Source: a virus
Taxonomy: Duplodnaviria > Caudoviricetes
DNA: 35,759 bases
Virus record (IMG/VR): IMGVR_UViG_3300037608_000191
Coordinates: 1 to 35,759 of that record
Reading direction: 5' to 3' (one strand)
Part shown: positions 1 to 15,944 of the stretch, one piece after another
How positions within the stretch are numbered: the first letter of the stretch is position 1
Layout of the letters: the number at the start of each line of letters is the position of its first letter
The notes under the pieces: generated by a model
Seen by the model: only the letters and a program-made list of their open reading frames with translations
What the model was told of the DNA's origin: nothing
Database searches by the model: none
Position numbers and translations under genes: made by a program

Positions 1-372
<372 letters not shown>

Positions 373-376
373 GTGA

Positions 377-519
<143 letters not shown>

Positions 520-645
520 ATTGACCCTGAGACGGCGACCGGGCTGAATGCCTGATATGGTCGGATGTGGGCCGATGTGGCGCGAGAAAGGCCGATGAAT
601 AGCGGGTCTTCCGCGCCTCGCGCCGGGTCTCGTGCTCGGAATGGT

Positions 646-680
646 TGAAAAGGGTGTTTCCTCGCCGACGGACAAGGGTC
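646..680 (+). repeat. Putative left-end transposase binding sites
   Basis: TGAAAAGGGTG (646-656) and a second AAGGGT (674-679), cores 24 bp apart; mirrored at the right end. Confidence 0.6.
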
Positions 681-682
681 AA

Positions 683-1384
683 TCAGAGGGGCTGCGAGGG
701 GTCTGCATGAAGCTCGCGGACAGTGTGCAGAGCCTCCGCATGACGCCCGTCGCCGAGGAGAAGCAGGTCCGGCCGGCGCAACGGCGGCCGGGACCATGAG
801 GGTTCCCAAGTGGCGGCCGCGTCGTCCTGGGGAATGGCCACGCGAACCCCGCGGGCCAGGTCGGCAAGGGCCTGCTCGATCAACCGCAGCCCCATCGGGA
901 ACAACTCCCGGCGCCAGAGGGTGTCGACCGTGTCGTCGGGCCGGACCCAGCACCACTCCTGGGCGGCGATGTCGCCGGCGTCCACGTTGTCACTCAGCCA
1001 GTAGACCGTCCCGCCGGCAACCGGGTCCCGGAGCCGGATCGTCCACCGGATCGCGTCGCGGCCGCGGTGCCTGGGGAGCAGAGACGGGTGGTAGCCGATC
1101 GCCCCGATCCTCGCGCGGAGCCGGGTCGCCCGGCCGATAAAGTCGTGCGAGTGGGCGGCGACGACGACGTCGGTCCCGACCGGCAGCCGGTCCGCGGAAA
1201 GCATGCCGGCGGGCAGGAACGGGACGCGGGCCAGGTCGGCGGCCGCCCTCAGCCGGTCGGGCCGCTCGGGCTCGGACTCCGACCAGAGGGGCGCCGAGAC
1301 GCCGAGGATCTCGTGGCCGGCCCGCCGGATCGCCTCGAATGCAGCCGCTCCAAAAGCCTTCTGACCGCACAGGTAAACCCGCAT
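683..1384 (-). CDS. 10-formyl-THF-dependent formyltransferase/hydrolase-fold protein (ALDH1L1 N-domain-like)
   Basis: MRVYLCGQKAFG, IGYHPSLLPRHRG, GGTVYWLSDNVDAGDIAAQ, DDTVDTLWRRELFP. Confidence 0.9.
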   Translation of the reverse strand: MRVYLCGQKAFGAAAFEAIRRAGHEILGVSAPLWSESEPERPDRLRAAADLARVPFLPAGMLSADRLPVGTDVVVAAHSHDFIGRATRLRARIGAIGYHPSLLPRHRGRDAIRWTIRLRDPVAGGTVYWLSDNVDAGDIAAQEWCWVRPDDTVDTLWRRELFPMGLRLIEQALADLARGVRVAIPQDDAAATWEPSWSRPPLRRPDLLLLGDGRHAEALHTVRELHADPSQPL

Positions 1385-1423
1385 CGCTCGTCCCTTCCGA
1401 AGTAGATCTCGTAGAGCGTCGCC

Positions 1424-2551
1424 CTACGCCGCCTCAGCCTCGCCCACATATCGGAACCCCTGAACCGCCCGCATGTGCCCGCCGTACCGGCTGCCGCCGA
1501 TGCCCCGCGACTTCAGCATCGTCCGCCACGACGCCTCGCCGTTCTCGCCGAGCACCCGCCCGCCGATGTAGAGCCACCCCGGCCGGCGGCGCAGCGCCGC
1601 GGCCAGCCCCGGGTGACTCGTGTGGAACACCGTGGTCATCGGCTTGCCGTACCGGTTCCGCCCGGCGAGCCACTCCTCGGCGACCCACTCGATGAAGCGC
1701 ACGCCGACGCCCACGCCCTGCCACTCGGGCATGACAACCAGCCGGCACATCCGGGCGCTCTTCAGGCCCGTCGTCGTCGCCACCGCCACGTGGGCCACAG
1801 GCTCCCCGCGGTTCAGCGCCACGTAGTTCGTCGCCCCGATCATCAGCGGCAGCTTCAGATAGTGATGCGCTTCAAATAGCGCCCAGGGGCGCCAAGCCGT
1901 TTGAAAAACGTCGATGCGGATCGGTGGCCGCCGCCGAAGCGACCCCCTTTGGAGGCTCATGTCCTCCGTGTCCAGAATCCAATCCGGACAGGCCCACTCC
2001 ACGATGTCCCGGTGGCACGAGAGCAGCACCACCTTCCGGCCCGGTTCCCGGCGCCACGCCTTCGTGAACGCCGCCGCGCCCACCCGCGCAATCTGCCGGT
2101 CCACCACCGACGTGAACTCGTCGATCACCAGGCGATCCCTCCCGCACAGCAGCGCCCGCGCGAGATCCGCGCGGAACCGCTCCCCCGTCGACAGCACCCC
2201 GTGCGGCCGCAGCCACGACGGCACGCTCCCCAGGCCCACCGCCGACAGGGCGCCCGCGACCGCGTCGAACGGCGCCGCCGGTGCGATCTCCTCGATGATC
2301 GGCCCGCCGCCCCACTCGAAGCCCTCCAGGTACGCCGCGCCGCCCCAGCACCGCCGCCCGATCGACGACTTGCCCGAGCCGCTCGGCCCCACCACGAGGC
2401 CCACCTGCCAGCGGTCCTCGTCCAGCGGGATCTCACACGCCGTACGGAATATGGCGCCCGCCTCCGGCGAGACGTTGAACAGCGACCGCACCCGCGCCGC
2501 CCGGTAGGTCTCCGGTACCACGCACCTCTGCTCGATCTCGATGCGCGTCAT
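1424..2551 (-). CDS. ABC-type ATPase fused to a C-terminal GNAT acyltransferase (phage Mom-associated type), 375 aa
   Basis: Walker A GPSGSGKS, signature LSTGE, Walker B LVIDEF, H-switch LSCH, GNAT motif A RLVVMPEWQGVGVG; ATG 2551 overlaps the upstream stop (ATGA). Confidence 0.85.
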   Translation of the reverse strand: MTRIEIEQRCVVPETYRAARVRSLFNVSPEAGAIFRTACEIPLDEDRWQVGLVVGPSGSGKSSIGRRCWGGAAYLEGFEWGGGPIIEEIAPAAPFDAVAGALSAVGLGSVPSWLRPHGVLSTGERFRADLARALLCGRDRLVIDEFTSVVDRQIARVGAAAFTKAWRREPGRKVVLLSCHRDIVEWACPDWILDTEDMSLQRGSLRRRPPIRIDVFQTAWRPWALFEAHHYLKLPLMIGATNYVALNRGEPVAHVAVATTTGLKSARMCRLVVMPEWQGVGVGVRFIEWVAEEWLAGRNRYGKPMTTVFHTSHPGLAAALRRRPGWLYIGGRVLGENGEASWRTMLKSRGIGGSRYGGHMRAVQGFRYVGEAEAA

Positions 2552-2829
2552 ATCACCAGCACCTTGATCTCGCGGCCGGAAAGCCGGGCCGACAGGTCCG
2601 AGAACATCGCCCTCTGGTCCGCCTCGTCCCGGCACAGGATGCCGATCGCGAACTGGGGCCGATAGACCGCGCCCTTGTGGACGCGCCCGTCCCGGGCCTT
2701 CACCGTGGGCAGCCTTCGCGGCCGTCGCGGCCGCGCGCACGCGCAAGCGTGGGAACCATCGCCACAGGCGCACCGGCGCCCGGGCCGGCGGCCGTGGCCG
2801 CCCGAACAAATGCAAAGGGGGCTTTTCAC
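2548..2829 (-). CDS. Small accessory protein with Cys/His-rich N-terminus, coupled to the ABC-GNAT gene
   Basis: GAGG SD before GTG; stop overlaps next ATG; globular-looking C-terminus YRPQFAIGILCRDEADQRAMF..EIKVLVI. Confidence 0.7.
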   Translation of the reverse strand: MKSPLCICSGGHGRRPGRRCACGDGSHACACARPRRPRRLPTVKARDGRVHKGAVYRPQFAIGILCRDEADQRAMFSDLSARLSGREIKVLVI

Positions 2830-2848
2830 CCTTTTCTCCTACCGCTAT

Positions 2849-2937
2849 CCTTCGGGCTCCTCGATTGGTGCCGGGGTGAGCCCGTAAGGGTGACCGCTGC
2901 TATCAACAGCGTTCGGTTGGAGGGGTGTCAGCCCCTC
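2849..2937 (-). promoter_or_regulatory. Three-hairpin structured leader between the portal stop and the modification operon
   Basis: Stems GAGGGG/CCCCTC (2920-2937), CGCTG/CAGCG (2895-2911), CCTT-CGGGCTC/GAGCCCGTAAGG (2849-2889). Confidence 0.55.
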
Positions 2938-2954
2938 TGCCTCATCCCGGTTTT

Positions 2955-4484
2955 CTACACCCGTAGGCCGGGAAATCTGCTCATTGCCACTCCGTTCGCC
3001 GCGTAGGCCGTCAGCGCCTGCTCCAGCACCGCCGCCGACCTCGCCGGCTTCCATTCCGCCATGAATGTCCGAAGACGCTCCTCGCACTCCCGCGCCGTCC
3101 GGCTCTCCCGGATGATCCGCGCCACCGGCGCGAGATCCCCGCCGAACGCCGCCGCCAGGTCCGTCGCGCCAGCCGCCGCCACCCGGTCCAGGTCCGCCAG
3201 TTCCGGCGCCGGCCCCGGCACCGCGAACGGGACCACGAACGGCACGGCCGGCCCCGCCGGCGCCGGCGACCGCTCCACCGGGATCCCCAGCTTCTTCGAC
3301 AACACCGGAATGCCGTCATCCGTCACGCGAAGCCCCGCCTGCGACAGCGACTGCAAGAGGGTTCCCGTCAGCCCCGCCTCCTTTGCCGACTCCCCCCCGA
3401 ACGCGATCGCCGGCGGCCGGCCCGGCATGCGGTTGATCTCCAGGAGCTGCGCGAACAACTGCTGCCGCAGCGTGCCCGACAGCATCATCGCGTCGAACTC
3501 CCGGATGTCGTCCCGCACCGCCTCATGCGCCGACGACTGTCCCGAGTTCATCCCCGTCGCCTGCGCCTCCGCGCTCAGCGTCTGGCCGATGATCAGCTTC
3601 GACTTCTCCCGCTGGCAGATGGTTAGGAAGCGCTCGTAGCCGTCCCCCGAGTCCCCGCTCGCCGCCTGCTTGATCTCGACTTCCGTCTCCCGCGAAATCA
3701 CCAGGCCGCCGATCTTCGTCGCGAAATCGAACGCCCGCTCCAGGATCCGCCGCGAGGCGTCATCCGCCTGGTCATACTTCCCCACCAGGAACGGCGCCCC
3801 GAACCGCTCCAGGAACCGCGCCCACCAGCCCCGGTCCATCACCGAGAGCAGCCACCACAGCACGATCGAACGCATCGGCCCGCCGAAGTGGTCCGGCGCC
3901 GACAGCAGGTGCCCGCGGTGCACGATGTACCGCGCCGGGTCCGGCGCCACCGTCGACCCCTTCACGAAGCCCCGCTCGTCCACCTCCCGGATCCGCAGCG
4001 CGCCGGACGTGAAGTCGAGCAGGCGGTGCGGCACCGGCACGATCTCCCGAAGCGCGAAGCCCGAGCCCGACGCCGCGAACACCTTCTCCGCCACCGCCAC
4101 CGGATAGAGCGTGCCATCCAGGAGATGCCCGTTCCCGAACAGCCAGTTCCCGCAGCCCTCCACCTGCGCGCGGATGAAATCCGCCGCCGCCACGTCTGCC
4201 CCGTCCTCCTCGTTCAGCGGGAGGATCGAGATCTGCTTCCCGATCACCGCCAGCTTCCGCTTCGCGAACTCCGACTGCGAGTGGCTGTCCGCGATCATCA
4301 TGTCCCGGTAGAGAGTGAACAGTTCCTCCGTCGCGCCCCCCTCCGCCATCGCGAAGATCCGCGCGATCCGGTCCACGTCCAGGAACGGCGCCACCGCCGG
4401 CGGCTCCCCGCCGCTATGCACGAACGCGGCCGCCCGCGTCAGCCGCCCCGCGATCCAGTTTCGGACTTGGTCACGCAGATTCAT
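2955..4484 (-). CDS. Portal protein, Mu gp29/DUF935 type
   Basis: KRKLAV, WARFLERFGAPFLVGKY, SKLIIGQTLS, AHEAVRDDI motifs; follows terminase. Confidence 0.92.
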   Translation of the reverse strand: MNLRDQVRNWIAGRLTRAAAFVHSGGEPPAVAPFLDVDRIARIFAMAEGGATEELFTLYRDMMIADSHSQSEFAKRKLAVIGKQISILPLNEEDGADVAAADFIRAQVEGCGNWLFGNGHLLDGTLYPVAVAEKVFAASGSGFALREIVPVPHRLLDFTSGALRIREVDERGFVKGSTVAPDPARYIVHRGHLLSAPDHFGGPMRSIVLWWLLSVMDRGWWARFLERFGAPFLVGKYDQADDASRRILERAFDFATKIGGLVISRETEVEIKQAASGDSGDGYERFLTICQREKSKLIIGQTLSAEAQATGMNSGQSSAHEAVRDDIREFDAMMLSGTLRQQLFAQLLEINRMPGRPPAIAFGGESAKEAGLTGTLLQSLSQAGLRVTDDGIPVLSKKLGIPVERSPAPAGPAVPFVVPFAVPGPAPELADLDRVAAAGATDLAAAFGGDLAPVARIIRESRTARECEERLRTFMAEWKPARSAAVLEQALTAYAANGVAMSRFPGLRV

Positions 4485-4491
4485 GGTTCCC

Positions 4492-6153
4492 TCACAGCAT
4501 CAGCCGTCCCGCCGGCCCCGCGCCAAGGCCCCGCGCTCCCAGCGCCGCCCCTGCGCCCACCGCCGCCGCCCGCGCCTCCGCCCGGCCCCGGCCCGACCGC
4601 AACGCGTGCCGCGCCAGCTTCACCCCGTCGAAGCAGTCCCCGTGATTCCCCGCCGAATCCAGAAGGTTCGTGAAGCCGCCCCGGTCCCGCACCACCAGCC
4701 GGAAGTCGTCCTTCAGCCAGCGGCACTCGGGCAGCGTGAGAGTCCCGTCGTCCAGGTCATTCACCACCTGGTTCCCCAGGTAGGTCTTCATCGGCAGCGT
4801 CTCCCCCAGGTGCTGCGTCGATTCAGAGGCCACCACCAGTTCCACTGGCACGACCCCCGCCAGTTCCTTCCGCACCCGCGCCGAGAAGAACCGCTCGTTC
4901 GATGCGTCCACCGCCAGCCGCCGGGCAGACAGGGAAACCCCGTGGCGCACCCGCGTGCACCCCCGCACCACGTCCCGGATGATCGCCAGCGACCGGTCCG
5001 GGTCCGCGCTCTTGAACCGAAGCACCAGCCGCACCACCGAGAGATTCCCCATGCCCTCGACCACCGCGATCGCGTTCGGGTTGCTCTTCGCCTTCTCCGT
5101 CGTCGCCAGGTCCCAGCCGATCGCCACCGGCCCGTCCCCCAGGAGATCCGTCCAGTTCGCCGGCGGCTCGTTCTCCGCCGCGACCCCCAGCAGCCGGCCC
5201 GCCTGCATCGCCCGGTGCAGCGCCGCCAGGGAAACCGCCGACGTGCCCCCCCGCGTGAACAGCAGCCCGTAGTTCCGGTCCCACGCGTCCCGGTCGATCG
5301 CCGCCGCCCGCGACGCCTCCGGCGAGGTCGGCTGGCGCGTCCGGAGGTCGAACATCTGCACCCCCGCCAGCGCCGCGTCCCACACGTCCACCCGGTGCAC
5401 CCGCACGTTCGCCTGGCTGTCGTACCAATGCCCCCGCGCGCTCTTCACCGAGAAGTCGGAGCCCTCCGGCGGGACGGCGAGCTCGTAGGAGAAGTGGCCG
5501 TCGTCGTCCGGCGGCGTCGTGCACATGACCACCCGGAACTCCGGATCCCGCGACGCGATCGGCTCCATCGCCTCCCAGAGATCCTTCAGCGCCCGGACGA
5601 ACCCGATCTCATCCATCATCACGAAGCCCGAGTAGCCTCGCGCCGTCGCCGGGTTCGGCGCAATCAGGCGCGTCCGCGAGAAGGCGGTCTTGTCGTGATA
5701 GAGCCGCGCCTCCACCTTCCCGTGCTCGAACATCTCGCAGAAGCCGTCGAAGTCCGCCGCGTCCGCCGAGGTCTCCAGGAGTTGGCCCTGCTCCGTCGCC
5801 AGCCGGCGCCACTTCTCGATCGCCTGCCGCCAGAGCTGCGCCTCCCGGATCAACATCTCCCCGCCCACCGCGATCGACGCCGACGCGTAGGTCACCAGCC
5901 GCCACGGCTTCTCCATCATCCGCCGCAGCGCCAGTGCGGAAAGGGTCGTCGTCTTCCCCGCCTGCCGGCGCCAGAGCCAGAGCACGAAGCCGATCTCGTC
6001 CGCCCCCCAGAACGCCTCCGTCTGGAACGGCAGGAACGGAATCAGCGGCTCGGCCGGCGACGGGGAAACACCAAGACGCAAAGATCGCGAAGCCTCCGGA
6101 CCGTCCGGCGTCCGCTTCGTCCGGCTTCGCGGCCTCTGCGTCTTCGTGTTCAT
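4492..6153 (-). CDS. Terminase large subunit, Mu gp28-like
   Basis: LPFQ, WRRQAGKT (Walker A), TARGYSG, VMMDEIGF (Walker B), nuclease IGWDLA and HGDCFD; ATG 6153 overlaps the upstream stop. Confidence 0.92.
   Translation of the reverse strand: MNTKTQRPRSRTKRTPDGPEASRSLRLGVSPSPAEPLIPFLPFQTEAFWGADEIGFVLWLWRRQAGKTTTLSALALRRMMEKPWRLVTYASASIAVGGEMLIREAQLWRQAIEKWRRLATEQGQLLETSADAADFDGFCEMFEHGKVEARLYHDKTAFSRTRLIAPNPATARGYSGFVMMDEIGFVRALKDLWEAMEPIASRDPEFRVVMCTTPPDDDGHFSYELAVPPEGSDFSVKSARGHWYDSQANVRVHRVDVWDAALAGVQMFDLRTRQPTSPEASRAAAIDRDAWDRNYGLLFTRGGTSAVSLAALHRAMQAGRLLGVAAENEPPANWTDLLGDGPVAIGWDLATTEKAKSNPNAIAVVEGMGNLSVVRLVLRFKSADPDRSLAIIRDVVRGCTRVRHGVSLSARRLAVDASNERFFSARVRKELAGVVPVELVVASESTQHLGETLPMKTYLGNQVVNDLDDGTLTLPECRWLKDDFRLVVRDRGGFTNLLDSAGNHGDCFDGVKLARHALRSGRGRAEARAAAVGAGAALGARGLGAGPAGRLML
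6067..6150. repeat. Imperfect 28-bp inverted repeat in the terminase 5' end (AACACnAAGACGC family)
   Basis: Arms 6067-6094 and 6123-6150; related single arms at 9784-9812 and 21626-21652, weaker at ~8931-8962. Confidence 0.8.
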
Positions 6154-6791
6154 TCCGGGGCCACCGCCGGGCGCTGACCGAACAGGACGCCGATCAGCTT
6201 CTCCATCTTCACCGGCTTCGCCTCCTTGCCCTGCGCGATCCGGCGCACCGACTCGTCGTCGAACCACTTCAGGAAGAGCTCCGCCGTCTGCCGCTGGAAC
6301 CGCTTCTCCGCCAGCGCCAGTTCCCGGTCCTTCTGCGCGAGCTTCGCCCGCATGGTTTTTGCCGCCGAGACCTTCGCGTCGGAATCCCGCAGTTTCGCCA
6401 GCGCCAGGCTCAGCGGAAGGACGTCGTCACCCTCCGCCGCCTCCAGCGCCTCCAGGATCTTGCCCCCCGCGATCGCTGCGGCCCCCTCGCTCAGGTTCCC
6501 GCCCGACGCCTTCGCCAGGCTGAAGGCGTAGTCCGAGAGGCGGCGGACGTTCTCCACCCGCTCCTCCTCCCGGAGCCAGTCCTCATAGCCGCCCGCCCGC
6601 CACTCCGAGAGATTCCCCGGCGTCACCCGCCACTGCGCGAAGTCGGCTGACAGCGCCCGCTCCGCCTCCGGAAGCGCGTTCAGCCACGCGCACAGCGCCG
6701 GGTACTTCTTCCCGTCCCGCATCCGCCGGTTCAGTTCCAACCGGACCGCCAGCGGCAGCCGGGCAATCTTCCCCTTCCGCGCCTCCGGCAT
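6150..6791 (-). CDS. Mu gp27/DUF3486-like protein (putative small terminase)
   Basis: RKGKIARLP..VRLELNRRMRDG..Y..L..WL N-terminus; directly upstream of terminase; GGAGG SD. Confidence 0.8.
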   Translation of the reverse strand: MPEARKGKIARLPLAVRLELNRRMRDGKKYPALCAWLNALPEAERALSADFAQWRVTPGNLSEWRAGGYEDWLREEERVENVRRLSDYAFSLAKASGGNLSEGAAAIAGGKILEALEAAEGDDVLPLSLALAKLRDSDAKVSAAKTMRAKLAQKDRELALAEKRFQRQTAELFLKWFDDESVRRIAQGKEAKPVKMEKLIGVLFGQRPAVAPE

Positions 6792-6794
6792 GGG

Positions 6795-6854
6795 TCACCT
6801 CCCGGCGCGGCGCAGGCGCCCGGCCGTGGCCGCGGTGTGGTCGATCGGATTCAT
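6795..6854 (-). CDS. Putative 19-aa leaderless uORF (MNPIDHTAATAGRLRRAGR)
   Basis: ATG 7 nt after the TACCGT -10 of the repeated promoter; its last codons contain the SD of the gp27-like gene. Confidence 0.45.
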   Translation of the reverse strand: MNPIDHTAATAGRLRRAGR

Positions 6855-6910
6855 GCGCGCGACGGTAGCCGCGCACCCCGCCTGCCATCCAAGCACAGTG
6901 CGGGTTCTGC
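6855..6910 (-). promoter_or_regulatory. Putative late promoter, copy 1
   Basis: CAGAACCCGCA (6909-6899)-N31-TACCGT-N7-ATG. Confidence 0.75.
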
Positions 6911-7045
6911 CCCGTGTGCTGCAGGGGCGCCGCGGCCGTTAACGGGCAGCCGCGCACGGATCCAGGAAGGCGGCATATCGGGTTCGAAAGTGCTTGATGG
7001 CGGGCGCTGCAAAGCGCAGCCTGCCGGAGATATCGGAGGTGAGAA

Positions 7046-8020
7046 ATGAAGAAGAACCTGCGAGCCATACCGCCGAGCGTTCGAGTGCGACTTCTCCAAC
7101 TCAAAAAGCGGGCTGTTGTTGCCGGCTGCGCACGGCTATTCAAAGCTGAGGACCTCCGTGGCGGGGCATTGGTTCATCTCGGCATTGAGCTTCGCGGTGA
7201 CGGGTTGAGCATTTCCGCGCAGGTCCTTCCTCGGCCCGAACAAGGGAAATACTCGTGGCGCAATATTCACGGCTGGGAAGAGGTCAGGAAGGACCTCCCT
7301 ATCGAAATCAGTTACCACCCGGTGGAGTCGCCAAACTGGGGCGATGCGTGGAACGGCACCCACACAGTCTGGTTGCCGCACAAAGCCTATCCGCGGGACT
7401 TCCACCCGCCGCGCGAGTTGGTAATCGCAATTCAGTGTCCGAATCCGGCGCCGGGCCAGGAAGCGTATCTTATTGCCGCAAGGGTAGACGAGGTGCTCGA
7501 TCAAGAGGCCCCGGACTTCGAGGAGCGTCTGCTTGAGGATCTGAACTTGCTTCAGGAGAACCTCGGTTCCTCCGGAGTTGAACCCGCGGACATCTCCGTT
7601 GCGGACTACGCGAGCACAGTACGGTTATCGTGGGATATCCTCCCGCCCGGGTCCCGCGATGATGCCTTCCGGAGACTATTCCGAGGTGGGCCTCCTTCTA
7701 AGGAGCAGATTGACACTGCGGCCGAACGCTATGACTTCTTCCAGACCCTGGCCCCGAAGAAGATCATCGTTGGGTCAAGCGGCTTCCGGCGATACTTCGG
7801 GGCGCTTCTGGAGGACGACTTGGTGGTCTTCGAGAACATCGAGTACGGAAATGCTATCTACATAATGTACGACAACTGGAAGAACCTCAGCAGCCGGAGC
7901 CGCATCGATCTACTGTCCGGTCGTCTCGGGGTTGGGTTCGACCGGGTCATTCATAAAGCGGGGTGGCCGACCCAGGTCAGGCTCTACGTTGAGCGCAAGC
8001 GCGAGGAGAAGCACCACTGA
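7046..8020 (+). CDS. Hypothetical moron protein, 324 aa, opposite to surrounding genes
   Basis: GGAGGT SD, long globular ORF, visibly lower GC than flanks, sits between gp26- and gp27-like genes. Confidence 0.85.
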   Translation: MKKNLRAIPPSVRVRLLQLKKRAVVAGCARLFKAEDLRGGALVHLGIELRGDGLSISAQVLPRPEQGKYSWRNIHGWEEVRKDLPIEISYHPVESPNWGDAWNGTHTVWLPHKAYPRDFHPPRELVIAIQCPNPAPGQEAYLIAARVDEVLDQEAPDFEERLLEDLNLLQENLGSSGVEPADISVADYASTVRLSWDILPPGSRDDAFRRLFRGGPPSKEQIDTAAERYDFFQTLAPKKIIVGSSGFRRYFGALLEDDLVVFENIEYGNAIYIMYDNWKNLSSRSRIDLLSGRLGVGFDRVIHKAGWPTQVRLYVERKREEKHH

Positions 8021-8039
8021 CTGACCAAGGGCCGAGGCG

Positions 8040-8315
8040 CTACGCCTCCCCCCGCTCGACCGCGAGGGTGCCGGCCGCCGTGATTCGATAGGACACCGCG
8101 CTCCCCAGGGGATCGCGGATCGCCTCCACGAAGCCGAGGCCCTTCAGGAGTTCCAGCGCCGCCCGGGCGTCGCCCGCGGTCGGCTCGAAGTCCACCATGC
8201 CCCGCCGGTGCGTCAGCCGCGCCACCGCCTCCGGCGTGAACGCCAGGAGGCTCCTCTCATAGAGGAACTGCAGCGCCGCGTGGCGCAGGTCCGTCGTCTG
8301 CTCGTTCGTCGCCAT
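8040..8315 (-). CDS. Mu gp26-like winged-helix protein
   Basis: LRHAALQFL..ALELLKGLGFVE..YRITAAG pattern; position upstream of the gp27-like gene. Confidence 0.7.
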   Translation of the reverse strand: MATNEQTTDLRHAALQFLYERSLLAFTPEAVARLTHRRGMVDFEPTAGDARAALELLKGLGFVEAIRDPLGSAVSYRITAAGTLAVERGEA

Positions 8316-8316
8316 G

Positions 8317-8505
8317 TCACCGCTCCTTCGCCGCCGGCCCGCCGCCGGCCGCCTTCAAGATCCGCACCGCTTCCTCACGCGCCTCGATCTCCGCCTTCAT
8401 CGCGTCCGCGTCGCCCTCCTGGCGCCCCGCCTCCACCGCCCGCCGGTTCGCCTTCAGGATCGCGACGGAGATCTCGATGTCCGCGATGGCGCCGGCGAAG
8501 CGCAC
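8317..8505 (-). CDS. Small hypothetical protein
   Basis: Fills the operon gap; helical composition. Confidence 0.5.
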   Translation of the reverse strand: MRFAGAIADIEISVAILKANRRAVEAGRQEGDADAMKAEIEAREEAVRILKAAGGGPAAKER

Positions 8506-8518
8506 GGCGGTGCACCCG

Positions 8519-9085
8519 TCAGGGGTGCCAATACGGAACCCACGCCTTCCACGCCTCGGGAAGGTCCGGCGCGCCGAACAGGCGACAGGCCAAGGCGTGG
8601 GCCGCTTCGTGCCGGCCGTAGGCGTCCGGGAAGAACCCGTCGTTTGCGAGCGCCAGGCGCATCAGGGCGGACTTGCGGGCACCCTTCGTGCCGCCCACCA
8701 TCCCGTTCCATTCTCCGGCCTCGCGGAAGACCCCGACCGACCGACCGAGCGACGGCGCCCACGCCTCATGCCCGGTCACGGTCGCGTGGACCGTCAGCCG
8801 GAAGTCGTCGAAGGCCCGCCCGCTCCGGGCCTCCGCGAAGTCGCACCACGCCTTCACCCGGCCCTGGTCGATGCCGTGGCACCCGAGCCGGAGGCCCTTG
8901 TTGAACAGCGTCGCGCATCCTGAACCGAGGACGCACACGGAGACGCAGAGGCAGCAGAGAAGCGCCCACCGCTCCACCCGCTCCGCCAGCCGGTTGAGCC
9001 TGCGCACGATGCGATCCAGCCGCCGCTGCAACGCCGCCGGGTCCCTTCGGACCTCCGACCTCCGACCTCGGGCCTCGGCCTTCAT
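8519..9085 (-). CDS. Putative lipoprotein with HExxH motif
   Basis: Hydrophobic stretch ending in LGSGC (lipobox-like); RHEAAH near the C-terminus. Confidence 0.6.
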   Translation of the reverse strand: MKAEARGRRSEVRRDPAALQRRLDRIVRRLNRLAERVERWALLCCLCVSVCVLGSGCATLFNKGLRLGCHGIDQGRVKAWCDFAEARSGRAFDDFRLTVHATVTGHEAWAPSLGRSVGVFREAGEWNGMVGGTKGARKSALMRLALANDGFFPDAYGRHEAAHALACRLFGAPDLPEAWKAWVPYWHP

Positions 9086-9088
9086 CCG

Positions 9089-9763
9089 TCACTCCGAGGC
9101 GTAGGGCTGGTCGATGTTGATGGTGATGGTCGCCCCCGGCGCGAGGTTCACGCCCGAGACGACGACCGCCGGCGACTGCGAGCCGGACGGCGACTGCGCC
9201 GACGGCACCGCCGCGCGCGTCTGCATGCTCCCATCGCTCTCCTGCGACTGGTCGTAGAGGTACCACGCCCCGCCCAGCAGCAGGGCCGCGAGCGACGTGC
9301 CGACATACTTCCCCGCGTTCCGGCGGAAGTGGTCCCCGGCGATCTCCGCCCATCCCTTCTCGACCGTGACCTCCTTCGCCGAGACCGCCGCGTTCACGTC
9401 CGCCACCGCGTCGCCGGCGCCGGCCGCCGCGATGAGTTCGCCGTAGCCCGGCCTCCAGAGCGCGACCGCCTCCTCGACGTAGACGGTCTTCGTCGGCCGC
9501 TTCGCCCGGGCCAGGCCGACCAGGTCGACCTTCACTCCGAAACTCCGCGCGCCGTTGGCCACCTTGCAGTCCGGCTGCACGAGCGGCCGATCGACGACCG
9601 AGGTCCGAGGGCCGAGGTCCGCCGGACTTCGGATCTCGGTTCTCGGATCTCGGTTCTCCGCCCCGGCGCCGGCGTTCAACGCGAAGGCCGCGAAGACCGC
9701 CAAGAGGGTGACGACCAACCGACCGCTGACTTCCGACCTCCGACTTCCGATCTCGCTCTTCAT
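9089..9763 (-). CDS. Putative exported/membrane protein
   Basis: Signal-like LVVTLLAVFAAFALNAGAGA and a second hydrophobic segment SLAALLLGGAWYLY; ATGA coupling. Confidence 0.65.
   Translation of the reverse strand: MKSEIGSRRSEVSGRLVVTLLAVFAAFALNAGAGAENRDPRTEIRSPADLGPRTSVVDRPLVQPDCKVANGARSFGVKVDLVGLARAKRPTKTVYVEEAVALWRPGYGELIAAAGAGDAVADVNAAVSAKEVTVEKGWAEIAGDHFRRNAGKYVGTSLAALLLGGAWYLYDQSQESDGSMQTRAAVPSAQSPSGSQSPAVVVSGVNLAPGATITINIDQPYASE
9591..9660. repeat. Heptamer-period palindromic repeat, in frame
   Basis: CCGAGGT-like units opposed to GATCTCG-like units; encodes RDPRTEIRSPADLGPRTS. Confidence 0.85.
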
Positions 9764-10458
9764 TCCTGTTCTCCTCCGCGTCCGGCCTCTGCGGCCTTCG
9801 CGTCTTTGTGTTGCCTCTCCTCCGCCTGCCTCTCCTCACACGCCGTGCAGAGCCACTGCCCGGCCTCGTTCACGCCCGGAAACTCGTTCGGGTTGATCTC
9901 GCGCCCGCACCCCGCGCAGACCCGCGCGCCCTCGGAATCCGAGGTCCGAAGTCCGAGGTCCGAGGCCCGCCGGATCTCGGCTCTCGGATCTCGGCTCTCG
10001 ATGCTCGCCTTCCCCCGCCTCATCCACATCCGCCGCCACTTGAAGAAGCCGTACCAGCCCAGCGTGACGCCCACGAAGCGCCAGCCCGCGCGCAGACGCG
10101 TCATGCGATAGCGCCGCGAGAGCCGGTAGAAGCGACGGTTCGACTGCCACACCGGGTGCCCGACGAACCAATCGAAGTCGTGCCGCAGGCAGGGCGGGAA
10201 GTACTTCGTCGGCCAGAACGACTCCGACACGCAGGTGCAGCCGTCGCAGTCGACGAACCAATCCCACGCCTTCGAGTCCACCGCCTCCAGGATCTCCGCC
10301 CGCTCCGCCGGCGGGACGTTGAACACCTTGAAAGACGCGACGATCCGCCGCCGCTCCGCCTCCCGCGACAGCGCGGCCCGGACCGAGGTCCGACGACCGA
10401 GGTCCGAAGTCCGCCGGATCTCGGACCTCGGATCTCGGATCTCGATCTTCCCGTTCAT
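9760..10458 (-). CDS. Phospholipase A2-like (DGC..CxxHD) domain plus C-terminal DksA/TraR-like C4 zinc finger, with repeat-derived segments
   Basis: DCDGCTC..YFPPCLRHDFDW..SNRRF; CAGCGREI..LCTACEERQAE. Confidence 0.6.
   Translation of the reverse strand: MNGKIEIRDPRSEIRRTSDLGRRTSVRAALSREAERRRIVASFKVFNVPPAERAEILEAVDSKAWDWFVDCDGCTCVSESFWPTKYFPPCLRHDFDWFVGHPVWQSNRRFYRLSRRYRMTRLRAGWRFVGVTLGWYGFFKWRRMWMRRGKASIESRDPRAEIRRASDLGLRTSDSEGARVCAGCGREINPNEFPGVNEAGQWLCTACEERQAEERQHKDAKAAEAGRGGEQE
9932..10001. repeat. Heptamer-period palindromic repeat, in frame
   Basis: Encodes SRDPRAEIRRASDLGLRTSDS. Confidence 0.85.
10378..10448. repeat. Heptamer-period palindromic repeat, in frame
   Basis: Encodes IRDPRSEIRRTSDLGRRTSVR. 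Confidence 0.85.
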
Positions 10459-10468
10459 CTCCGCGCCC

Positions 10469-10894
10469 TCATCCCTCGCCCTTGTCCGCCTTGCTTCCCG
10501 CGACGTAGCCGAGGTCCTTCATCACGTCCTTGAACGACGCGAGCGTTGTGGCCCGCAGTTCGACGAGCGACTCGTGGAGACCTTCCAGGCGCCGGTCCAT
10601 CCGCGCCTCCATCGCGCGGATCTCCGCGGTGTAGCGGGTTTCGACATCGCGGATCTGCTGGGCGTGGCGGGCCTCGCACGAGCGCCACTCGTTCACGTGC
10701 ACCCGCTGGGTGAGCTGCTCGTTGAACTCGCGCACCAGCGCGGCGATGGTCTGGTCGATCGGCGGCTGCCGGCGGAAGAAGCCGGCGATATCCAGGACGG
10801 CCTTCACGACGCCCAGCAGCGCCATGATCCCGCCGATGACATAGAAGACCTGGAGAGCCTGCCCGATCGTCGCCGCGTCAGGGTTCGGATTCAT
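10469..10894 (-). CDS. Single-TM coiled-coil protein (DUF2730-like position), first gene of the leftward late operon
   Basis: N-terminal TM then coiled coil; ATG 10894 implied by promoter motif spacing. Confidence 0.65.
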   Translation of the reverse strand: MNPNPDAATIGQALQVFYVIGGIMALLGVVKAVLDIAGFFRRQPPIDQTIAALVREFNEQLTQRVHVNEWRSCEARHAQQIRDVETRYTAEIRAMEARMDRRLEGLHESLVELRATTLASFKDVMKDLGYVAGSKADKGEG

Positions 10895-10950
10895 GCGCGG
10901 CACGGTAGCCGTGCGCGCGGTTCAGGCTCCAATCATAGTGCGGGTTCTGC
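10895..10950 (-). promoter_or_regulatory. Putative late promoter, copy 2
   Basis: CAGAACCCGCA (10949-10939)-N31-TACCGT-N7-ATG. Confidence 0.8.
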
Positions 10951-10956
10951 CCCCCC

Positions 10957-10994
10957 GGAAACGAACGCGCCGGCGGGGTTGGATCCGCCGGCGC
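10957..10994 (-). terminator. Probable intrinsic terminator ending the leftward defence-like operon
   Basis: 10-bp stem GCGCCGGCGG/CCGCCGGCGC (10967-10994) followed on the - strand by GTTCGTTT. Confidence 0.65.
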
Positions 10995-11107
10995 TTCCGG
11001 GTTGGTGCGGGAGGGTGCCCGCGTGTCAGGCTCCCACGATGTCAGACCCCCGCCGCGCGGTCAGGCGATGGTGCGGCTTCTGCGGGGGGGGCTCGCTGCG
11101 CTGCCGC

Positions 11108-11557
11108 TCATTGCTCCTTCGCGGCTGCGCGAATCAGTTCGGAGAACGTGTGGAAGGTCCGGTACACGCTTGCGCCGGTGAGCGCTGTGAGACCCCCGTA
11201 GATGGCGAAGAAGCCATCACAGTACAGAGACTGGGCCTTCATATCGATGAAGCAGCCGGCCAGGGAGACGGCCGACAGGATCAAGCACCACCGCGTGGCG
11301 TGGATCATGTACTCGACCAAGATGGAGTAGTAGCCCGCCACCTTGAGGCGCCGCACTGTCCTCCCGCTCAGGGTCAGCAGGATTGACTTCGCCGTCGCTA
11401 CGAAACCGGCCCCGATCGAACCAACCGTCAGCACGGTGCCGAGGATCTGGGCCATGTCATGATTGGTGTATCCCCGGCGGTAGAAAACGAAAATCACCAC
11501 CGCTGCCACGATGCCCAGTACCAGCGGATACTTGCGCTCAACCGTTATCCCCGTCAC
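11108..11557 (-). CDS. Four-TM membrane protein (RexB-like architecture)
   Basis: Four hydrophobic segments in 149 aa; overlaps the end of the upstream gene. Confidence 0.75.
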   Translation of the reverse strand: MTGITVERKYPLVLGIVAAVVIFVFYRRGYTNHDMAQILGTVLTVGSIGAGFVATAKSILLTLSGRTVRRLKVAGYYSILVEYMIHATRWCLILSAVSLAGCFIDMKAQSLYCDGFFAIYGGLTALTGASVYRTFHTFSELIRAAAKEQ

Positions 11558-12443
11558 CCTCGGCCTCCCGAACCTCTAGCACTTCGCCCCTCCGCCGCGC
11601 CCAAGCCGCAGCCGCAGCGCCTCGCCTGAACTCATAGGATGCCCGCCTGCCCGCCCGCGTGTCGAGCGCGATCGGCTCACGCATGCGGTCCTCGATCAAG
11701 TCAACCGCCGACGTCTCTCCGTCCCGGTCCACTCCACACACCTCGATGCTCTTCACTTCAGCCGGACGCCCCGCAACGCTGCGCGCCCACGAGCGGGCGA
11801 GGCCGAAGACACGATCCCGAGCGAGAGATCCGCGGCGAGCATGGCCAAGCGAGATCGACAACTCAACGGTTGGCGCTACGCCTACGGACACCTCCCGGAT
11901 GAAACGGCTTACGCCCGGGTTCCCTAGTGCGATAAACTGCGGGTTGGTCACCCGTGCTGCGCGAAGGTGGAGCTTTCGGACGACCATCATGCGCTGCATC
12001 CGCGCCAGCGCATCGCGAGACAGAAGTGGGTCGATTGAAATCCCGGGCGGCAGGTTCAGCTTCCGCTCGATGTAGTCGGCAATCCGGGAGGCTGACGCGC
12101 CGACCTTTGTACTCTGAAGCACCAGAACCGATGTCGGGATGTGGTACAGGAAAGCGGTCTGCTCGCCGACACCCTCATCCGCCGCAAGAGGCAGATCCCT
12201 GACCGGGCCACGCATCGAAGCGCAGGATGGCAGGTCGTCCATTCGGATCCGTATCATGTCGCCCTCGCGCATGTCCTCGGCGGTGTGCAATTCCTGAAGG
12301 CGAACTGGAGCTCCGCCCAGCGCCTCGTTTCGCCTCTCCGGAGGGTTCATCTGCGCGATCGAATCCAGAAGCGAGTGAAACGGGCGCCGAATTGTGTCCG
12401 GAATCTCCACAACGTAGAAGTCGAACTTCAGCGTCTTCCTCAT
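11538..12443 (-). CDS. DUF6731-like soluble protein (possible RexA-like sensor), 301 aa
   Basis: IRIRMDDLP, LAADEGVGEQTAFLY..VLVLQ..GASASRIADYI and C-terminal VDLIEDRM; ATG 12443 overlaps the BrnT stop. Confidence 0.65.
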   Translation of the reverse strand: MRKTLKFDFYVVEIPDTIRRPFHSLLDSIAQMNPPERRNEALGGAPVRLQELHTAEDMREGDMIRIRMDDLPSCASMRGPVRDLPLAADEGVGEQTAFLYHIPTSVLVLQSTKVGASASRIADYIERKLNLPPGISIDPLLSRDALARMQRMMVVRKLHLRAARVTNPQFIALGNPGVSRFIREVSVGVAPTVELSISLGHARRGSLARDRVFGLARSWARSVAGRPAEVKSIEVCGVDRDGETSAVDLIEDRMREPIALDTRAGRRASYEFRRGAAAAAWARRRGEVLEVREAEGDGDNG

Positions 12444-12859
12444 TGGTCTTTCTCCTTGAATTGCCTCACCAGCGCCGAGAGACACTCACAGTAGACTGCC
12501 TCTTCCTTCTCGCTTGCGCGCCGCATCGAGATCACCCGAACGGTCTCCCCCGGTCGCATCGTAGTAACGAAGAGGACGACATGCCCGCTGGTGTCCACCG
12601 CCATATGCTCGAAGCGGGTCTCACCGCCGCGTTCGATTGGGCCTCGGGTGAGGACTAGCGGCCGTTTGAGGGGAAGAAGCATCCCCTCGAAGAAGTGCAC
12701 GGCGCTTTCCAGAGAGTACCCATGCTTCTTCCGGTTCTCCTCCTCTTTCTCCGGGTCGTAGTCGATACCCGTGCGGCCGAAGATCAAGCGGAAGTCCGTC
12801 GCTTCCCAAGGCCCATCGGGAGCAGGGCGTTCACCTAGCGTTTCCGCCGCCTCCTTCAC
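12440..12859 (-). CDS. brnT: BrnT (DUF497) family ribonuclease toxin
   Basis: DYDPEKEEENRKKHGYSL..F, ETRF..VVLFVTT.R..VRVISMRRASEKE..Y. Confidence 0.85.
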   Translation of the reverse strand: MKEAAETLGERPAPDGPWEATDFRLIFGRTGIDYDPEKEEENRKKHGYSLESAVHFFEGMLLPLKRPLVLTRGPIERGGETRFEHMAVDTSGHVVLFVTTMRPGETVRVISMRRASEKEEAVYCECLSALVRQFKEKDQ

Positions 12860-14355
12860 GCCAGCTTCCTCGCCAGTTGTTCTTCCAGGATGTCCTTCAC
12901 GGTCAGGGGGATGATGACGCGGCCGGTGGCGCGGAACTGGGCGTCGGCCTCGCGGAGCGCGTCGTCGGAGTAGTCGAACGAAACGAAGAAGCCCTTCGGG
13001 CGCTTGTCCCGGGCGAGGACGCCGGCGAAGTCGCGGATGTCCGGGCTGCCGGCCTTGTCCTTCTGCTTCACCTGGATCGGGTACCAGTTCTCCACCAGGT
13101 TGAGCTCGTCCGCCCGCGGCGTGCCGTAGGGCGCGCCGGGCTCCGCGACGATCGAGGCCGGGTAGATCCGGCCGTCGATCCCCTTGTCCCCCACCTTCGT
13201 CTTGTTCGGGATCCCGCCCAGCGCGATGACCGCCCAGTTCTCGAACTCGAACGGCGGGATGGCGCGCAGCTTCTCCTCACTCCACGGCAGGTCGCGGACC
13301 ACGAAGCCGCGCCCGATCCGCCGAAGCGCCTCGTCCTCCTGGATCCCGCACACCTCCCGCAGCCGCTTTGCCATCACCCTGCAGGCCGTCGGCGAAACGT
13401 CGATCCCAATCCACTGCCGCTTCAACTTCTGCGCCGCCACCAGCGCCGTGCCGCATCCGCAGAATGCATCGAGCACGACGTCGTTCTCGTTGCTGCCCAT
13501 CTCGATGATCCGCTCAAGGAGCTTCAGGGGCTTCTGTGTCGGGTAGCCCAAGCTCTCCGCACCGCGCCCCTGCAGCGGGCCGATGTCGTCCCAGACCGTT
13601 CCCAACGGGGCGCCGGGCATCTCGTCCAGATACCTCTTCTGGCGCGGCGTCGTTCCCGGCTTGGCCTGCACGATGCGGCCCTGCTTGTGAAGCTCTTCCA
13701 TCCGCTCCTTACTGAAACGCCAGGACCGGCGGATGCCGAGAAACTCGTATATCGGGTTCCCCTTCCCAGGTGCATCGTTTCCGGGCGCTCCGAGGTCGCC
13801 CAGAGAGTACCGGCGCCCGGTGCCGGGCTCCAAGTGACGGTAGTTCTTCTCCACGTAATCCGCATCGTAGGGACGGTACAGGTGCGTGAACTTGTAGTCG
13901 GCGGTCCGGCCGTAGAAAAAGACCGAGTCGTGAACGCGGCCGAGGTGCTTCGACCCCTGCGCGGCGTCGTTGTGGGCAGACTGCCGCTTCCAGATAATCT
14001 CGTTCACGAACTGCGCTTCCCCGAAGACCTGGTCGAGCATGACCTTGACGTAGTGGGAGGCGTGCCAGTCGCAGTGGTAGTAGAACGAGCCGGTCGGTTT
14101 CAGGACGCGGTGGAGCTCGACGCAGCGCGGGCGCATGTAATCCAGGTAGGCGGCCGTCGACGCGTGGCGGTCGTCGAAGGACCGCTTCTCCTTCGTCTCG
14201 CCCCAGAAGACCTCGTAGTTCCGGTTCGAGTTGAACGGCGGGTCGATGTAGACGAGATCCACGCACGCGTCCGGCAGCCGGCGCAGTTGCTCCAGGCAAT
14301 CCCCGCACCAGACGACGCGGGTGTCCACGAGCGCCGATGTCTTCGCTTTTGTCAT
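12856..14355 (-). CDS. Beta-class N4/N6 DNA methyltransferase fused to an Mrr-like endonuclease domain, 499 aa
   Basis: IDPPF precedes YPTQKP and DAFCGCGT; C-terminal FEFENW..GDKGIDG..IQVKQ; ATG 14355 with GGAGG SD. Confidence 0.9.
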   Translation of the reverse strand: MTKAKTSALVDTRVVWCGDCLEQLRRLPDACVDLVYIDPPFNSNRNYEVFWGETKEKRSFDDRHASTAAYLDYMRPRCVELHRVLKPTGSFYYHCDWHASHYVKVMLDQVFGEAQFVNEIIWKRQSAHNDAAQGSKHLGRVHDSVFFYGRTADYKFTHLYRPYDADYVEKNYRHLEPGTGRRYSLGDLGAPGNDAPGKGNPIYEFLGIRRSWRFSKERMEELHKQGRIVQAKPGTTPRQKRYLDEMPGAPLGTVWDDIGPLQGRGAESLGYPTQKPLKLLERIIEMGSNENDVVLDAFCGCGTALVAAQKLKRQWIGIDVSPTACRVMAKRLREVCGIQEDEALRRIGRGFVVRDLPWSEEKLRAIPPFEFENWAVIALGGIPNKTKVGDKGIDGRIYPASIVAEPGAPYGTPRADELNLVENWYPIQVKQKDKAGSPDIRDFAGVLARDKRPKGFFVSFDYSDDALREADAQFRATGRVIIPLTVKDILEEQLARKLA

Positions 14356-14369
14356 GCCGCCTCCCGTCT

Positions 14370-14423
14370 CAGAACCCGCAGAATGAGTCGCGCCCCGGCC
14401 GGTTGCAAGGCAGAGTCGGCGGC
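14370..14423 (+). promoter_or_regulatory. Putative late promoter, copy 3 (antisense within the leftward operon)
   Basis: CAGAACCCGCA (14370-14380)-N30-CAGAGT-N7-ATG. Confidence 0.7.
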
Positions 14424-14618
14424 ATGAAAACAAGCCCGAAGGCCGCCCAAATGCGCCGAACCCTCGAGGCCGCCCGGCACGAGTTCGCATTCCTCACCGG
14501 GCTGCGCGCCTTCGATGCCGCCGACACCTCCAAGACCTGGCGCCTCAGCTACCGGACTCTGATCGCCCGGATCGACCGGGTTCTCAGCCGACCTTCCGCG
14601 TCGGGTACCGGTTCTTGA
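14424..14618 (+). CDS. 64-aa hypothetical protein under the late promoter motif
   Basis: ATG at the spacing predicted by the motif; 3' end overlaps the KTSC 3' end. Confidence 0.55.
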   Translation: MKTSPKAAQMRRTLEAARHEFAFLTGLRAFDAADTSKTWRLSYRTLIARIDRVLSRPSASGTGS

Positions 14619-14796
14619 TGTGGCTCGCCAGGTAACTGCCCTTCGATGCCGCCGACATCAGGCTCGAATACACCGAGGCGGGAACCCCACTGTACTGGTA
14701 GACGCCCCCGCTCACGAACTCCACCTCCAGCACCTGCGCCTCCGCATCGTAGCCGACGGACCGAACATTCGATGACGACACACTCGTCCTGATCAT
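14584..14796 (-). CDS. KTSC domain protein
   Basis: VSSSNVRSVGYD..LEVEF..GGVYQY.GVP..Y..LM.A.SKGSY. Confidence 0.95.
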   Translation of the reverse strand: MIRTSVSSSNVRSVGYDAEAQVLEVEFVSGGVYQYSGVPASVYSSLMSAASKGSYLASHIKNRYPTRKVG

Positions 14797-14880
14797 ACGG
14801 TTCTCCCTTCTTCTCTCCGCGTCTTCCCTCTTTCCAACGTTCGGAAACCCGCCCCCGCGGGGCTTCCAAGGTTCGGACGG

Positions 14881-15438
14881 TCAGGGCTTGCGGCGCCGCT
14901 GGCCGTTCGCCTTGCTGACTTCCTCGGCAATCATGCGGCGAAGATCCGGGAGAAGATCCCGGACGGCGAGCCGGACGTCCTGCTTCAACGCGTCGGCGAG
15001 GGATGCCGGCGCGGCTGATTCACGAGGCGGCGGCGTCAGAGCGCCAACGCGGTCGGCCGCCTCCCGCGTGGCCGCGATCGCGTCCAGGTGGCGGATCTCA
15101 TCCGGCGTCATTGCCCGGCGACCCGTCAGCACGTCGTCCGTCTGCGCTTCGCTCAGGCCCAGCAGCGCGCCGATCTCCGCCCACGTCCGGCCGCTCTGAA
15201 GCTGGAAGTGCCGGAGCTTCGTCTGCGGGTTCCACTCAGGCGCCGGCGCGTGCCAGTCTGTGAGCCCGAGGGATTGCTCCATCTGGATGAGCGCACGTTC
15301 CGGATTCGGGCCGAACCTAGCGATGCCCTTCCGCGCTTGGTCCAGCATCGACCGAGACACGCCGAGACGTTCGGCAAGCTGCCCCCACTGAAGAGAGGCG
15401 GCTTTTTTCACGCGCTCCAGCCGAGATTCTGCGGTCAT
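14881..15438 (-). CDS. Prophage repressor candidate with two XRE-like HTH domains
   Basis: WGQLAERLGVSRSMLDQ and WAEIGALLGLSEAQ; divergent from the Ner-like gene; no S24 domain evident. Confidence 0.75.
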   Translation of the reverse strand: MTAESRLERVKKAASLQWGQLAERLGVSRSMLDQARKGIARFGPNPERALIQMEQSLGLTDWHAPAPEWNPQTKLRHFQLQSGRTWAEIGALLGLSEAQTDDVLTGRRAMTPDEIRHLDAIAATREAADRVGALTPPPRESAAPASLADALKQDVRLAVRDLLPDLRRMIAEEVSKANGQRRRKP

Positions 15439-15729: not shown

Positions 15730-15944
15730 GCGCCGAACAGCTGAGCTTGATTCTAGCGCTCCGCGACCTCGCGCTTGACCTCCGCCGGTGTGCGGCGCGG
15801 CTCTCGCGGCTCGCCGACGAGATTACGAAACTTTCCGGCGGGCCGGGTTCGGTGGGCGGCGGTTCCCATGCAAAGGGGGCTTCCCGCCGTCGCCGTATGG
15901 TGCCCCGGCCCGCCGGTTCCGATTCAACCAAGGAGACCCCATGA
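15726..15944 (+). CDS. Small hypothetical protein
   Basis: GTGA and ATGA overlaps with both neighbours. Confidence 0.5.
   Translation: MSAEQLSLILALRDLALDLRRCAARLSRLADEITKLSGGPGSVGGGSHAKGASRRRRMVPRPAGSDSTKETP

Follow-up and report, generated by a model that had tools for sequence, protein, structure and literature searches.

The terminal cassette of a Mu-like prophage

The IMG/VR virus record IMGVR_UViG_3300037608_000191 (Duplodnaviria; Caudoviricetes) was analyzed over its entire length of 35,759 nucleotides (nt), referred to here as the window; this stretch is the whole virus record and contains a complete Mu-like transposable prophage (positions ~534 to 35507). On the minus strand, after the terminase and portal genes, the prophage carries three genes, which we term the cassette, in the following order: a small gene, a gene for an ABC-type ATPase fused to a GNAT acyltransferase (ABC-GNAT), and a gene for a formyl-folate enzyme. 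The stop codon of the small gene overlaps the ABC-GNAT start codon (ATGA), 39 nt separate the ABC-GNAT gene from the formyl-enzyme gene, and the final stop codon of the trio lies 149 base pairs (bp) from the phage end, compared with 115 bp between mom and the end of phage Mu. A preliminary description of this DNA had proposed a tight three-gene unit at the prophage end, located downstream of the late packaging genes in a mom-like terminal slot and devoid of a permease. All three open reading frames (ORFs) are indeed present in this position on the minus strand and are coupled; there is no permease among the recurring neighbor clusters scanned (24 proteins) and no membrane segment in any of the three cassette proteins (maximum 19-residue hydropathy, 1.45).

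The central gene (1424..2551, minus strand; phrog_11143, E = 8e-126) encodes a protein of 375 amino acids (aa), including an ABC-ATPase (residues 1 to 206) and a basic GNAT acyltransferase (residues 207 to 375). The longest ORF begins at 2815, but the homologs begin at 2551. The ABC motifs are intact (Walker A, 55 to 62; signature, 120 to 124; Walker B DE, 144 and 145; and H180) and nearly or fully invariant among relatives, as is the QGxGxG coenzyme A (CoA)-binding loop of the GNAT domain (278 to 283), which is intact and invariant. In an AlphaFold model (predicted local distance difference test score, 85), the ABC domain covers residues 1 to 206 (best VIA Z, 14.8) and the GNAT domain residues 211 to 373 (Z, 12.6), and fold searches matched the ATPase part to ABC nucleotide-binding domains. 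The GNAT domain is strongly basic, with an isoelectric point of 11.0. Motifs, profile match, and model thus all support the fusion that had been proposed.

The formyl-folate gene (683..1384, minus strand) encodes a 233-aa enzyme predicted to use 10-formyltetrahydrofolate (10-formyl-THF), of the type found at the N-terminus of ALDH1L1 (Nt-FDH). The formyltransferase fold named in the preliminary description was borne out by a PF00551 match (E = 3e-18), and the enzyme is closest to Nt-FDH rather than to the amine formyltransferases: its best sequence match in the PDB is Nt-FDH (E = 3e-32; Fmt, 2.5e-11; ArnA, 1.5e-10), and its scores fall far under the NCBIfam cut-offs for fmt, PurN, and ArnA (Fmt, 55 bits versus a cut-off of 201). 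It shares with Nt-FDH the His/Ser/Asp triad (His99, Ser101, and Asp135), and Gly97 occupies the place of the Asn of amine formyltransferases. There is no tRNA-binding C-terminal domain, and the enzyme stands alone, lacking carrier, dehydrogenase, or hydratase domains and having the GNAT protein as its partner; HypX is absent from its 49 PDB matches. PHROGs places the enzyme among auxiliary metabolic genes, and automatic names call it Fmt.

A motif survey of 179 distinct family sequences, in 176 of which the motif was placed, revealed that none of the 176 carries Asn at position -2 relative to the His, compared with 31 of 33 cellular PF00551 proteins (38 loci, of which 5 were dropped since the motif search did not place them). 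One of the cellular exceptions lacking Asn is itself a prophage copy of the cassette's formyl-enzyme family. His99, Ser101, and Asp135 are 99% conserved in the family. According to the accessible part of PMC4388273, this Asn plays a crucial part in Fmt, ArnA, and GART; FDH has Ile at the same position.

The small gene (2548..2829, minus strand; phrog_28816, E = 8e-9) encodes a 93-aa protein with 7 Cys, which is composed of a variable, Cys-rich, basic N-terminus (approximately residues 1 to 42) and a conserved C-terminal domain of about 45 aa that, by inspection, appears to be of a beta-alpha-beta type. This domain (here, the small domain) also occurs in phiE255 gp28, in an "acr candidate" of Porphyromonas gingivalis phages, and at the C-terminus of the ParB protein of Gordonia phage Axumite; elsewhere, it stands alone or forms the C-terminal domain of a ParB-like protein. 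A start at 2703, with the Cys-rich part being noncoding, had been considered on the basis of a codon-usage score and the G+C content of third codon positions, and was overturned by comparison with relatives. In two of these, the N-terminal frame is open and preserved across a 3-nt indel, and the N-terminal codons differ from those of relative L227 by 10 synonymous and 13 nonsynonymous changes, with the cysteines retained. There is also a recurrent MKS(P)-type start, and an AGGAG ribosome-binding site lies ahead of the GTG at 2829. A 51-aa form is annotated in several database entries, and both starts are possibly used in vivo. The Cys-rich N-terminus is therefore genuine, and its Cys richness proved lineage specific; its length and Cys number vary among relatives (0 to 6 Cys). 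The small protein was rejected as a Com zinc finger (best window of the Com profile, E = 0.93), its Cys pattern being variable and of the CxC type, not CxxC...CxxC. An ESM Atlas search with the small protein returned only unnamed clusters, and a complex prediction for ABC-GNAT and the small domain (score, 0.16; mark, 0.32) was not used either way.

A 125-nt spacer (2830..2954, minus strand) separates the portal gene from the small gene, is kept in two relatives, and folds strongly; the fold of 2690 to 2960, which includes the leader and the Cys-rich codons, is more stable than those of shuffled sequences (z = -3.9). The spacer region contains no sigma-70 promoter, terminator, or Rfam match. 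It is possibly a regulatory leader providing translational control in place of com.

Distribution and genomic context of the cassette

The cassette is widespread and occurs in many phages that are not related to one another. ABC-GNAT has matches in 61 of 50,697 GenBank phage records, and the full trio is found in Burkholderia phage phiE255, Pseudomonas phage Komp_PAO1_1, a P. gingivalis phage, and Axumite. In IMG/VR, a relative is encoded in 501 of 600 scanned stretches, and about 3,400 such stretches are estimated in all. Neighborhoods were counted on the best 80 loci, with near-identical loci kept and each denominator comprising the loci with enough flank. The small domain lies upstream of ABC-GNAT in 74 of 76 loci, and the formyl enzyme directly downstream in 54 of 68, in agreement with the co-occurrence that had been predicted. 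Thirty-five loci obtained by a single-query search, mostly 32 to 38% identical, have neither the small domain nor the formyl enzyme as judged by profiles. A distant ABC-GNAT clade (L001 to L035) from large aquatic phages lacks the small domain, com, and the formyl enzyme by the same means, and its neighboring genes include an exonuclease and a MoxR-like ATPase.

In a FastTree phylogeny of 85 rows, the ABC-GNATs linked to formyl enzymes fall into one clade of 74 rows (support, 100), separated by long outgroup branches. His254 is present in all 62 labeled ingroup rows, every one of the 11 outgroup rows has Phe instead, and His310 is changed to Asn in three of the six ingroup rows without a formyl enzyme. 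These substitutions hint that the GNAT pocket changed along with its partner, although they concern a single clade and do not constitute independent evidence.

The cassette had been tied to transposable phages, which did not hold, as Gordonia, Streptococcus, and Leptospira phages carry the cassette or its core adjacent to the terminase gene. ParB and ABC-GNAT sit just before the terminase in Axumite, 315.4, and LE3. In Streptococcus phage 315.4, whose cassette has no formyl enzyme, a gene with an ASCH domain is located after ABC-GNAT and before the terminase (L224:4631-5008); locus L115 has a gene that looks similar by eye (8104-8502). ASCH domains bind nucleic acid.

Two recurrent associations connect the cassette with DNA. 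First, 20 of the 69 evaluable loci have a Com-like gene (phrog_6417, E = 9e-24) no more than 600 nt upstream. The slot after com holds mom in Mu, the cassette in phiE255 and Komp_PAO1_1, and an annotated DNA methyltransferase in all six other phages opened (B3, AP3, RsoM1USA, TJ1, phiARM81ld, and Smp131), which were hand-picked from 61 Com-matching GenBank records; at the right ends of BcepMu and B3, the com slot was not found. The prediction of a com/mom slot for the cassette was thus supported. Second, 29 of the 69 loci encode the small domain as part of a ParB fusion; com and the ParB fusion occur together in none, and 20 of the 69 have neither. The available portion of PMC13229309 reports that phage ParB proteins with both a nucleotide-binding and a C-terminal domain activate a DNA T-dioxygenase and that both domains are needed. 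The cassette resembles these systems in that a ParB-like protein of this architecture, whose C-terminus corresponds to the small domain, is found beside a phage enzyme; it differs in enzyme class, and the small domain in our cassette lacks the ParB part. Because the com slot otherwise holds methyltransferases or mom, and because of the ParB fusion, DNA is the most plausible target of the cassette.

Predicted DNA acylation and competing explanations

On balance, we favor, with moderate confidence, the interpretation that, late in infection, the cassette acylates a base in newly synthesized DNA of the phage itself. Such acylation would probably shield the phage DNA and blunt host restriction nucleases. 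In the proposed mechanism, the ABC domain would form ATP-dependent dimers that clamp or open double-stranded DNA, and the basic GNAT domain would transfer the acyl moiety of acyl-CoA to an exocyclic amine, with cytosine N4 being likelier than adenine N6. The small domain would serve as the activating subunit, in a role comparable to that of the C-terminal domain in ParB activators of phage DNA T-dioxygenases. The formyl enzyme would move the formyl group of 10-formyl-THF to the CoA thiol, as ALDH1L1 does to phosphopantetheine, and cassettes without this enzyme would use host acetyl-CoA.

The core of this proposal is not new. The ABC-ATPase-coupled GNAT was predicted to acylate a DNA nucleobase by Iyer et al. 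in 2013, as cited in section 3.4.7 of PMC7824862, and the claim that the system is undescribed therefore failed for its core. The two-domain protein is shared with that prediction, and its example, Tenacibaculum phage pT24, matches ours (29% identity; E = 1e-29); the PMC7824862 passage mentions neither a formyl enzyme nor the small domain or a link to com. No study linking the formyl enzyme with ABC-GNAT was found in the literature searched, which comprised main texts with few subscription papers among them; PMC12839542 deals with a different system. What the window chiefly adds to the 2013 prediction is a variant small subunit rich in Cys.

The cassette shares with com-mom of Mu a terminal late position in a transposable phage, a com gene upstream in many relatives, and the GNAT fold. 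A His-Tyr motif (H230/Y231) falls in a similar register to Mom H58/Y59 in a nonsignificant alignment (E = 0.055), and R270 is invariant. Unlike Mu, the window has no com. Counting from R270 against Mom R111, the QGxGxG loop would occupy the region of Mom S124, in which the CoA loop of Mom is degenerate. As described in the available part of PMC13219725, Mom is a single enzyme that installs an amino acid on DNA with Gly-tRNA as the donor and has neither an ATPase nor a QGxGxG loop. Membership in the Mom family is thus unlikely, and with its CoA loop intact the GNAT domain is less likely to use a tRNA donor, in line with the expectation of a chemistry different from that of Mom. Judging from sequence comparisons, ABC-GNAT does not appear to be a Mom member, though its function may be like that of Mom.

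The analogy with TmcA/NAT10 that had been drawn is a loose one. The ATPase of TmcA is helicase-like, whereas that of the cassette is of the ABC type, in a phage-borne protein of 375 aa with no detected tRNA-binding domain, and neither TmcA nor Mom is among the best 50 matches listed in the GNAT fold searches. What remains is the architecture, an ATPase fused to an acyl-CoA GNAT, and the precedent for acylation of a nucleobase amine (PMC13219725, available part).

Mutual exclusivity with other DNA-modification genes was observed in part. No convincing mom was detected in 48 cassette records (one marginal match, E = 7.7e-4 over 47 of 245 positions; the control, Mu, was found at E = 1e-86; one further cassette record lay outside the 48), with many of these records being fragments, the loci not being de-replicated, and no baseline being available for the frequency of mom in comparable phages. 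Replacement of mom is therefore supported but not proven. Methyltransferases do co-occur with the cassette: Dam-type methylases exceeded the cut-off in 1 of the 48 records and N6/N4-type enzymes were present in 5, and the window itself encodes one of the latter type.

In addition to these limits, several points weigh against acylation of phage DNA as set out above. This prophage encodes its own N6/N4 DNA methyltransferase and lacks com. The nearest folds of the GNAT domain, among the best 50 matches listed, are ordinary acetyltransferases of proteins and small molecules (best Z, 13.9). Alignment of Mom profiles by hhalign gave E values of 0.39 and 0.055, and neither a profile of 110 Mom homologs nor phrog_1384 finds anything in the window. 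The formyl enzyme is not adjacent in 14 of the 68 loci, one of which has a copy 443 nt away, and its presence requires at least five label changes on the tree; it is thus dispensable. A hydrolase activity would explain the loss of Asn equally well. Instability has been described for acyl groups at adenine N6 (PMC13219725, available part), and a base formamide may also be labile. Finally, no experimental study or modified-base data on cassette-bearing phages were found in the literature searched.

The nature of the acyl group is a separate and more doubtful question. In the accessible part of PMC6802093, FDH formylates the phosphopantetheine thiol, and formyl-CoA formation by HypX is described as proposed but not directly shown. 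Since an enzyme of the thiol-formylating type lies beside an acyl-CoA GNAT, formyl-CoA is a candidate donor, and the formyl enzyme may produce it. That phages in their thousands formylate their DNA via formyl-CoA, placing N-formyl marks before packaging and using acetyl when the enzyme is lost, is a tentative proposal that we consider possible and more probably wrong than right; no earlier description of such a modification or donor chemistry was found in the literature searched. If the cassette does acylate phage DNA, a common, unmeasured base modification would exist there, with consequences for evasion of restriction and CRISPR and for sequencing-based modification calling, and a new sequence-modifying tool enzyme would be at hand. 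Axumite and its relatives, which are cultured on harmless hosts, carry the full cassette, so direct tests are feasible.

Among the competing explanations, the one that fares best, while still unlikely, is that the GNAT domain acylates a protein, either a host defense or transcription factor or a virion protein, with the ABC domain unfolding or gating the target. RimI and N-terminal acetyltransferases are among the nearest GNAT folds, there is precedent for the acetylation of host RNA polymerase by phage GNATs, Rac being one example (PMC7824862, available part), and the small gene carries the label "acr candidate" in P. gingivalis phages, assigned solely by prediction software. A protein target would leave the com slot and the ParB fusion unexplained, however, and the cassette sits after the portal gene, whereas anti-defense protein modifiers are usually early genes.

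A two-step modification of DNA, in which the GNAT domain first adds acetyl or a group carrying an amine, and this amine is subsequently formylated, or formyl groups are removed by hydrolysis, by the formyl enzyme without involvement of formyl-CoA, seems improbable to us; it shares the DNA target with the favored interpretation, and its probability is not additive to that of the latter. The installation of an amino acid by Mom (PMC13219725, available part), the His-Tyr alignment, the hydrolase activity of Nt-FDH alone (PMC4388273, available part), and the dispensability of the formyl enzyme are all consistent with such a scheme. The intact CoA loop speaks against a tRNA donor, however, and amine formylation is less likely given the missing Asn.

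We regard as quite improbable a target in RNA or aminoacyl-tRNA, as in TmcA or AtaT, with the third gene being a phage methionyl-tRNA formyltransferase. This explanation draws on the ATPase-GNAT combination recalling TmcA/NAT10, on a weak match of the GNAT profile to NAT10 (E = 0.21), and on the automatic Fmt names, but the third gene product has neither the Asn nor the C-terminal domain of Fmt and scores far below the Fmt cut-off. The prophage also has no tRNA gene, the ATPase is of the ABC type, and the com/ParB context favors DNA. Least probable by our estimate is metabolic cargo, with the enzymes altering host folate or small-molecule pools and leaving nucleic acids untouched; the PHROGs class and the many top GNAT folds acting on small molecules fit this idea, but the tight coupling to com, ParB, and the terminase and the basic GNAT surface do not.

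Prophage ends and neighboring genes

The Mu-type gene set in the window includes MuA-like, MuB-like, Gam, gpF, gpG, protease I, gp36, and portal genes. Its extent (~534 to 35507) was assigned because contigs in publicly available metagenomes from groundwater and coal differ in their flanks beyond 533 and 35507, an empty insertion site was found in four public runs, and two relatives (92% and 88% protein identity) diverge from the window at the same left point. The left prophage end (530..682) begins at 533 or 534, with a copy of the target-site duplication at 530 to 533. At two different insertion sites, the termini read GG...CC if the target duplication is taken as 4 bp long, or CGG...CC if it is taken as 3 bp; those of Mu are TG...CA, and a TG is apparent at the corresponding end of relative L227. 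The match of phrog_310 to the transposase (637 residues) covers only residues 20 to 142. The prophage may represent a divergent transposable-phage lineage.

The genes are arranged in divergent arms, one running rightwards (15000 to 35449; transposition, head, and tail genes) and the other leftwards (683 to 15400; terminase, portal, and cassette). The Mu-type portal gene (2955..4484, minus strand; PF06074, E = 2e-62) is directly upstream of the small gene and is preceded by the gene for the terminase large subunit (4492..6153, minus strand; phrog_2, E = 1e-14). The N6/N4 DNA methyltransferase (12856-14355, minus strand) is fused to an Mrr-type nuclease domain; downstream of its gene are a BrnT-like toxin gene (12440-12787) and then a DUF6731 gene, and a KTSC gene is found at 14584-14796. 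A ParB-like gene (15941-16819, plus strand), situated between a Ner-like gene and the transposase gene, encodes a protein without the small C-terminal domain of the cassette.

The nearest named homologs are from Lentisphaerae (74%) and Kiritimatiellaeota (68%) bins. A homolog scan of 79 genomes of the phylum of G045 matched 0 of 79, with no positive control in the scan, and a profile scan of genome contigs was dominated by ordinary ABC ATPases. The sequencing runs listed as matches included no RNA run. A 15-nt repeat (2810-2824 and 15868-15882) was dropped as being at chance level by a rough estimate. Degenerate 7-nt repeats (CCGAGGT/CGGATCT type) are clustered at 9037-10470 and 18873-18961 in direct and inverted orientations, partly inside predicted genes.

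No Rfam match reached the gathering score in positions 1 to 3200, and ARAGORN called no tRNA at an exact 127-nt repeat on the host side (1-127 and 393-519), which flanks a GIY-YIG gene (25-372). This repeat resembles the 3' half of a tRNA-Ser with a self-complementary insert of about 61 nt in the anticodon loop, and an uninterrupted tRNA-like form of it is present in contigs of public runs.

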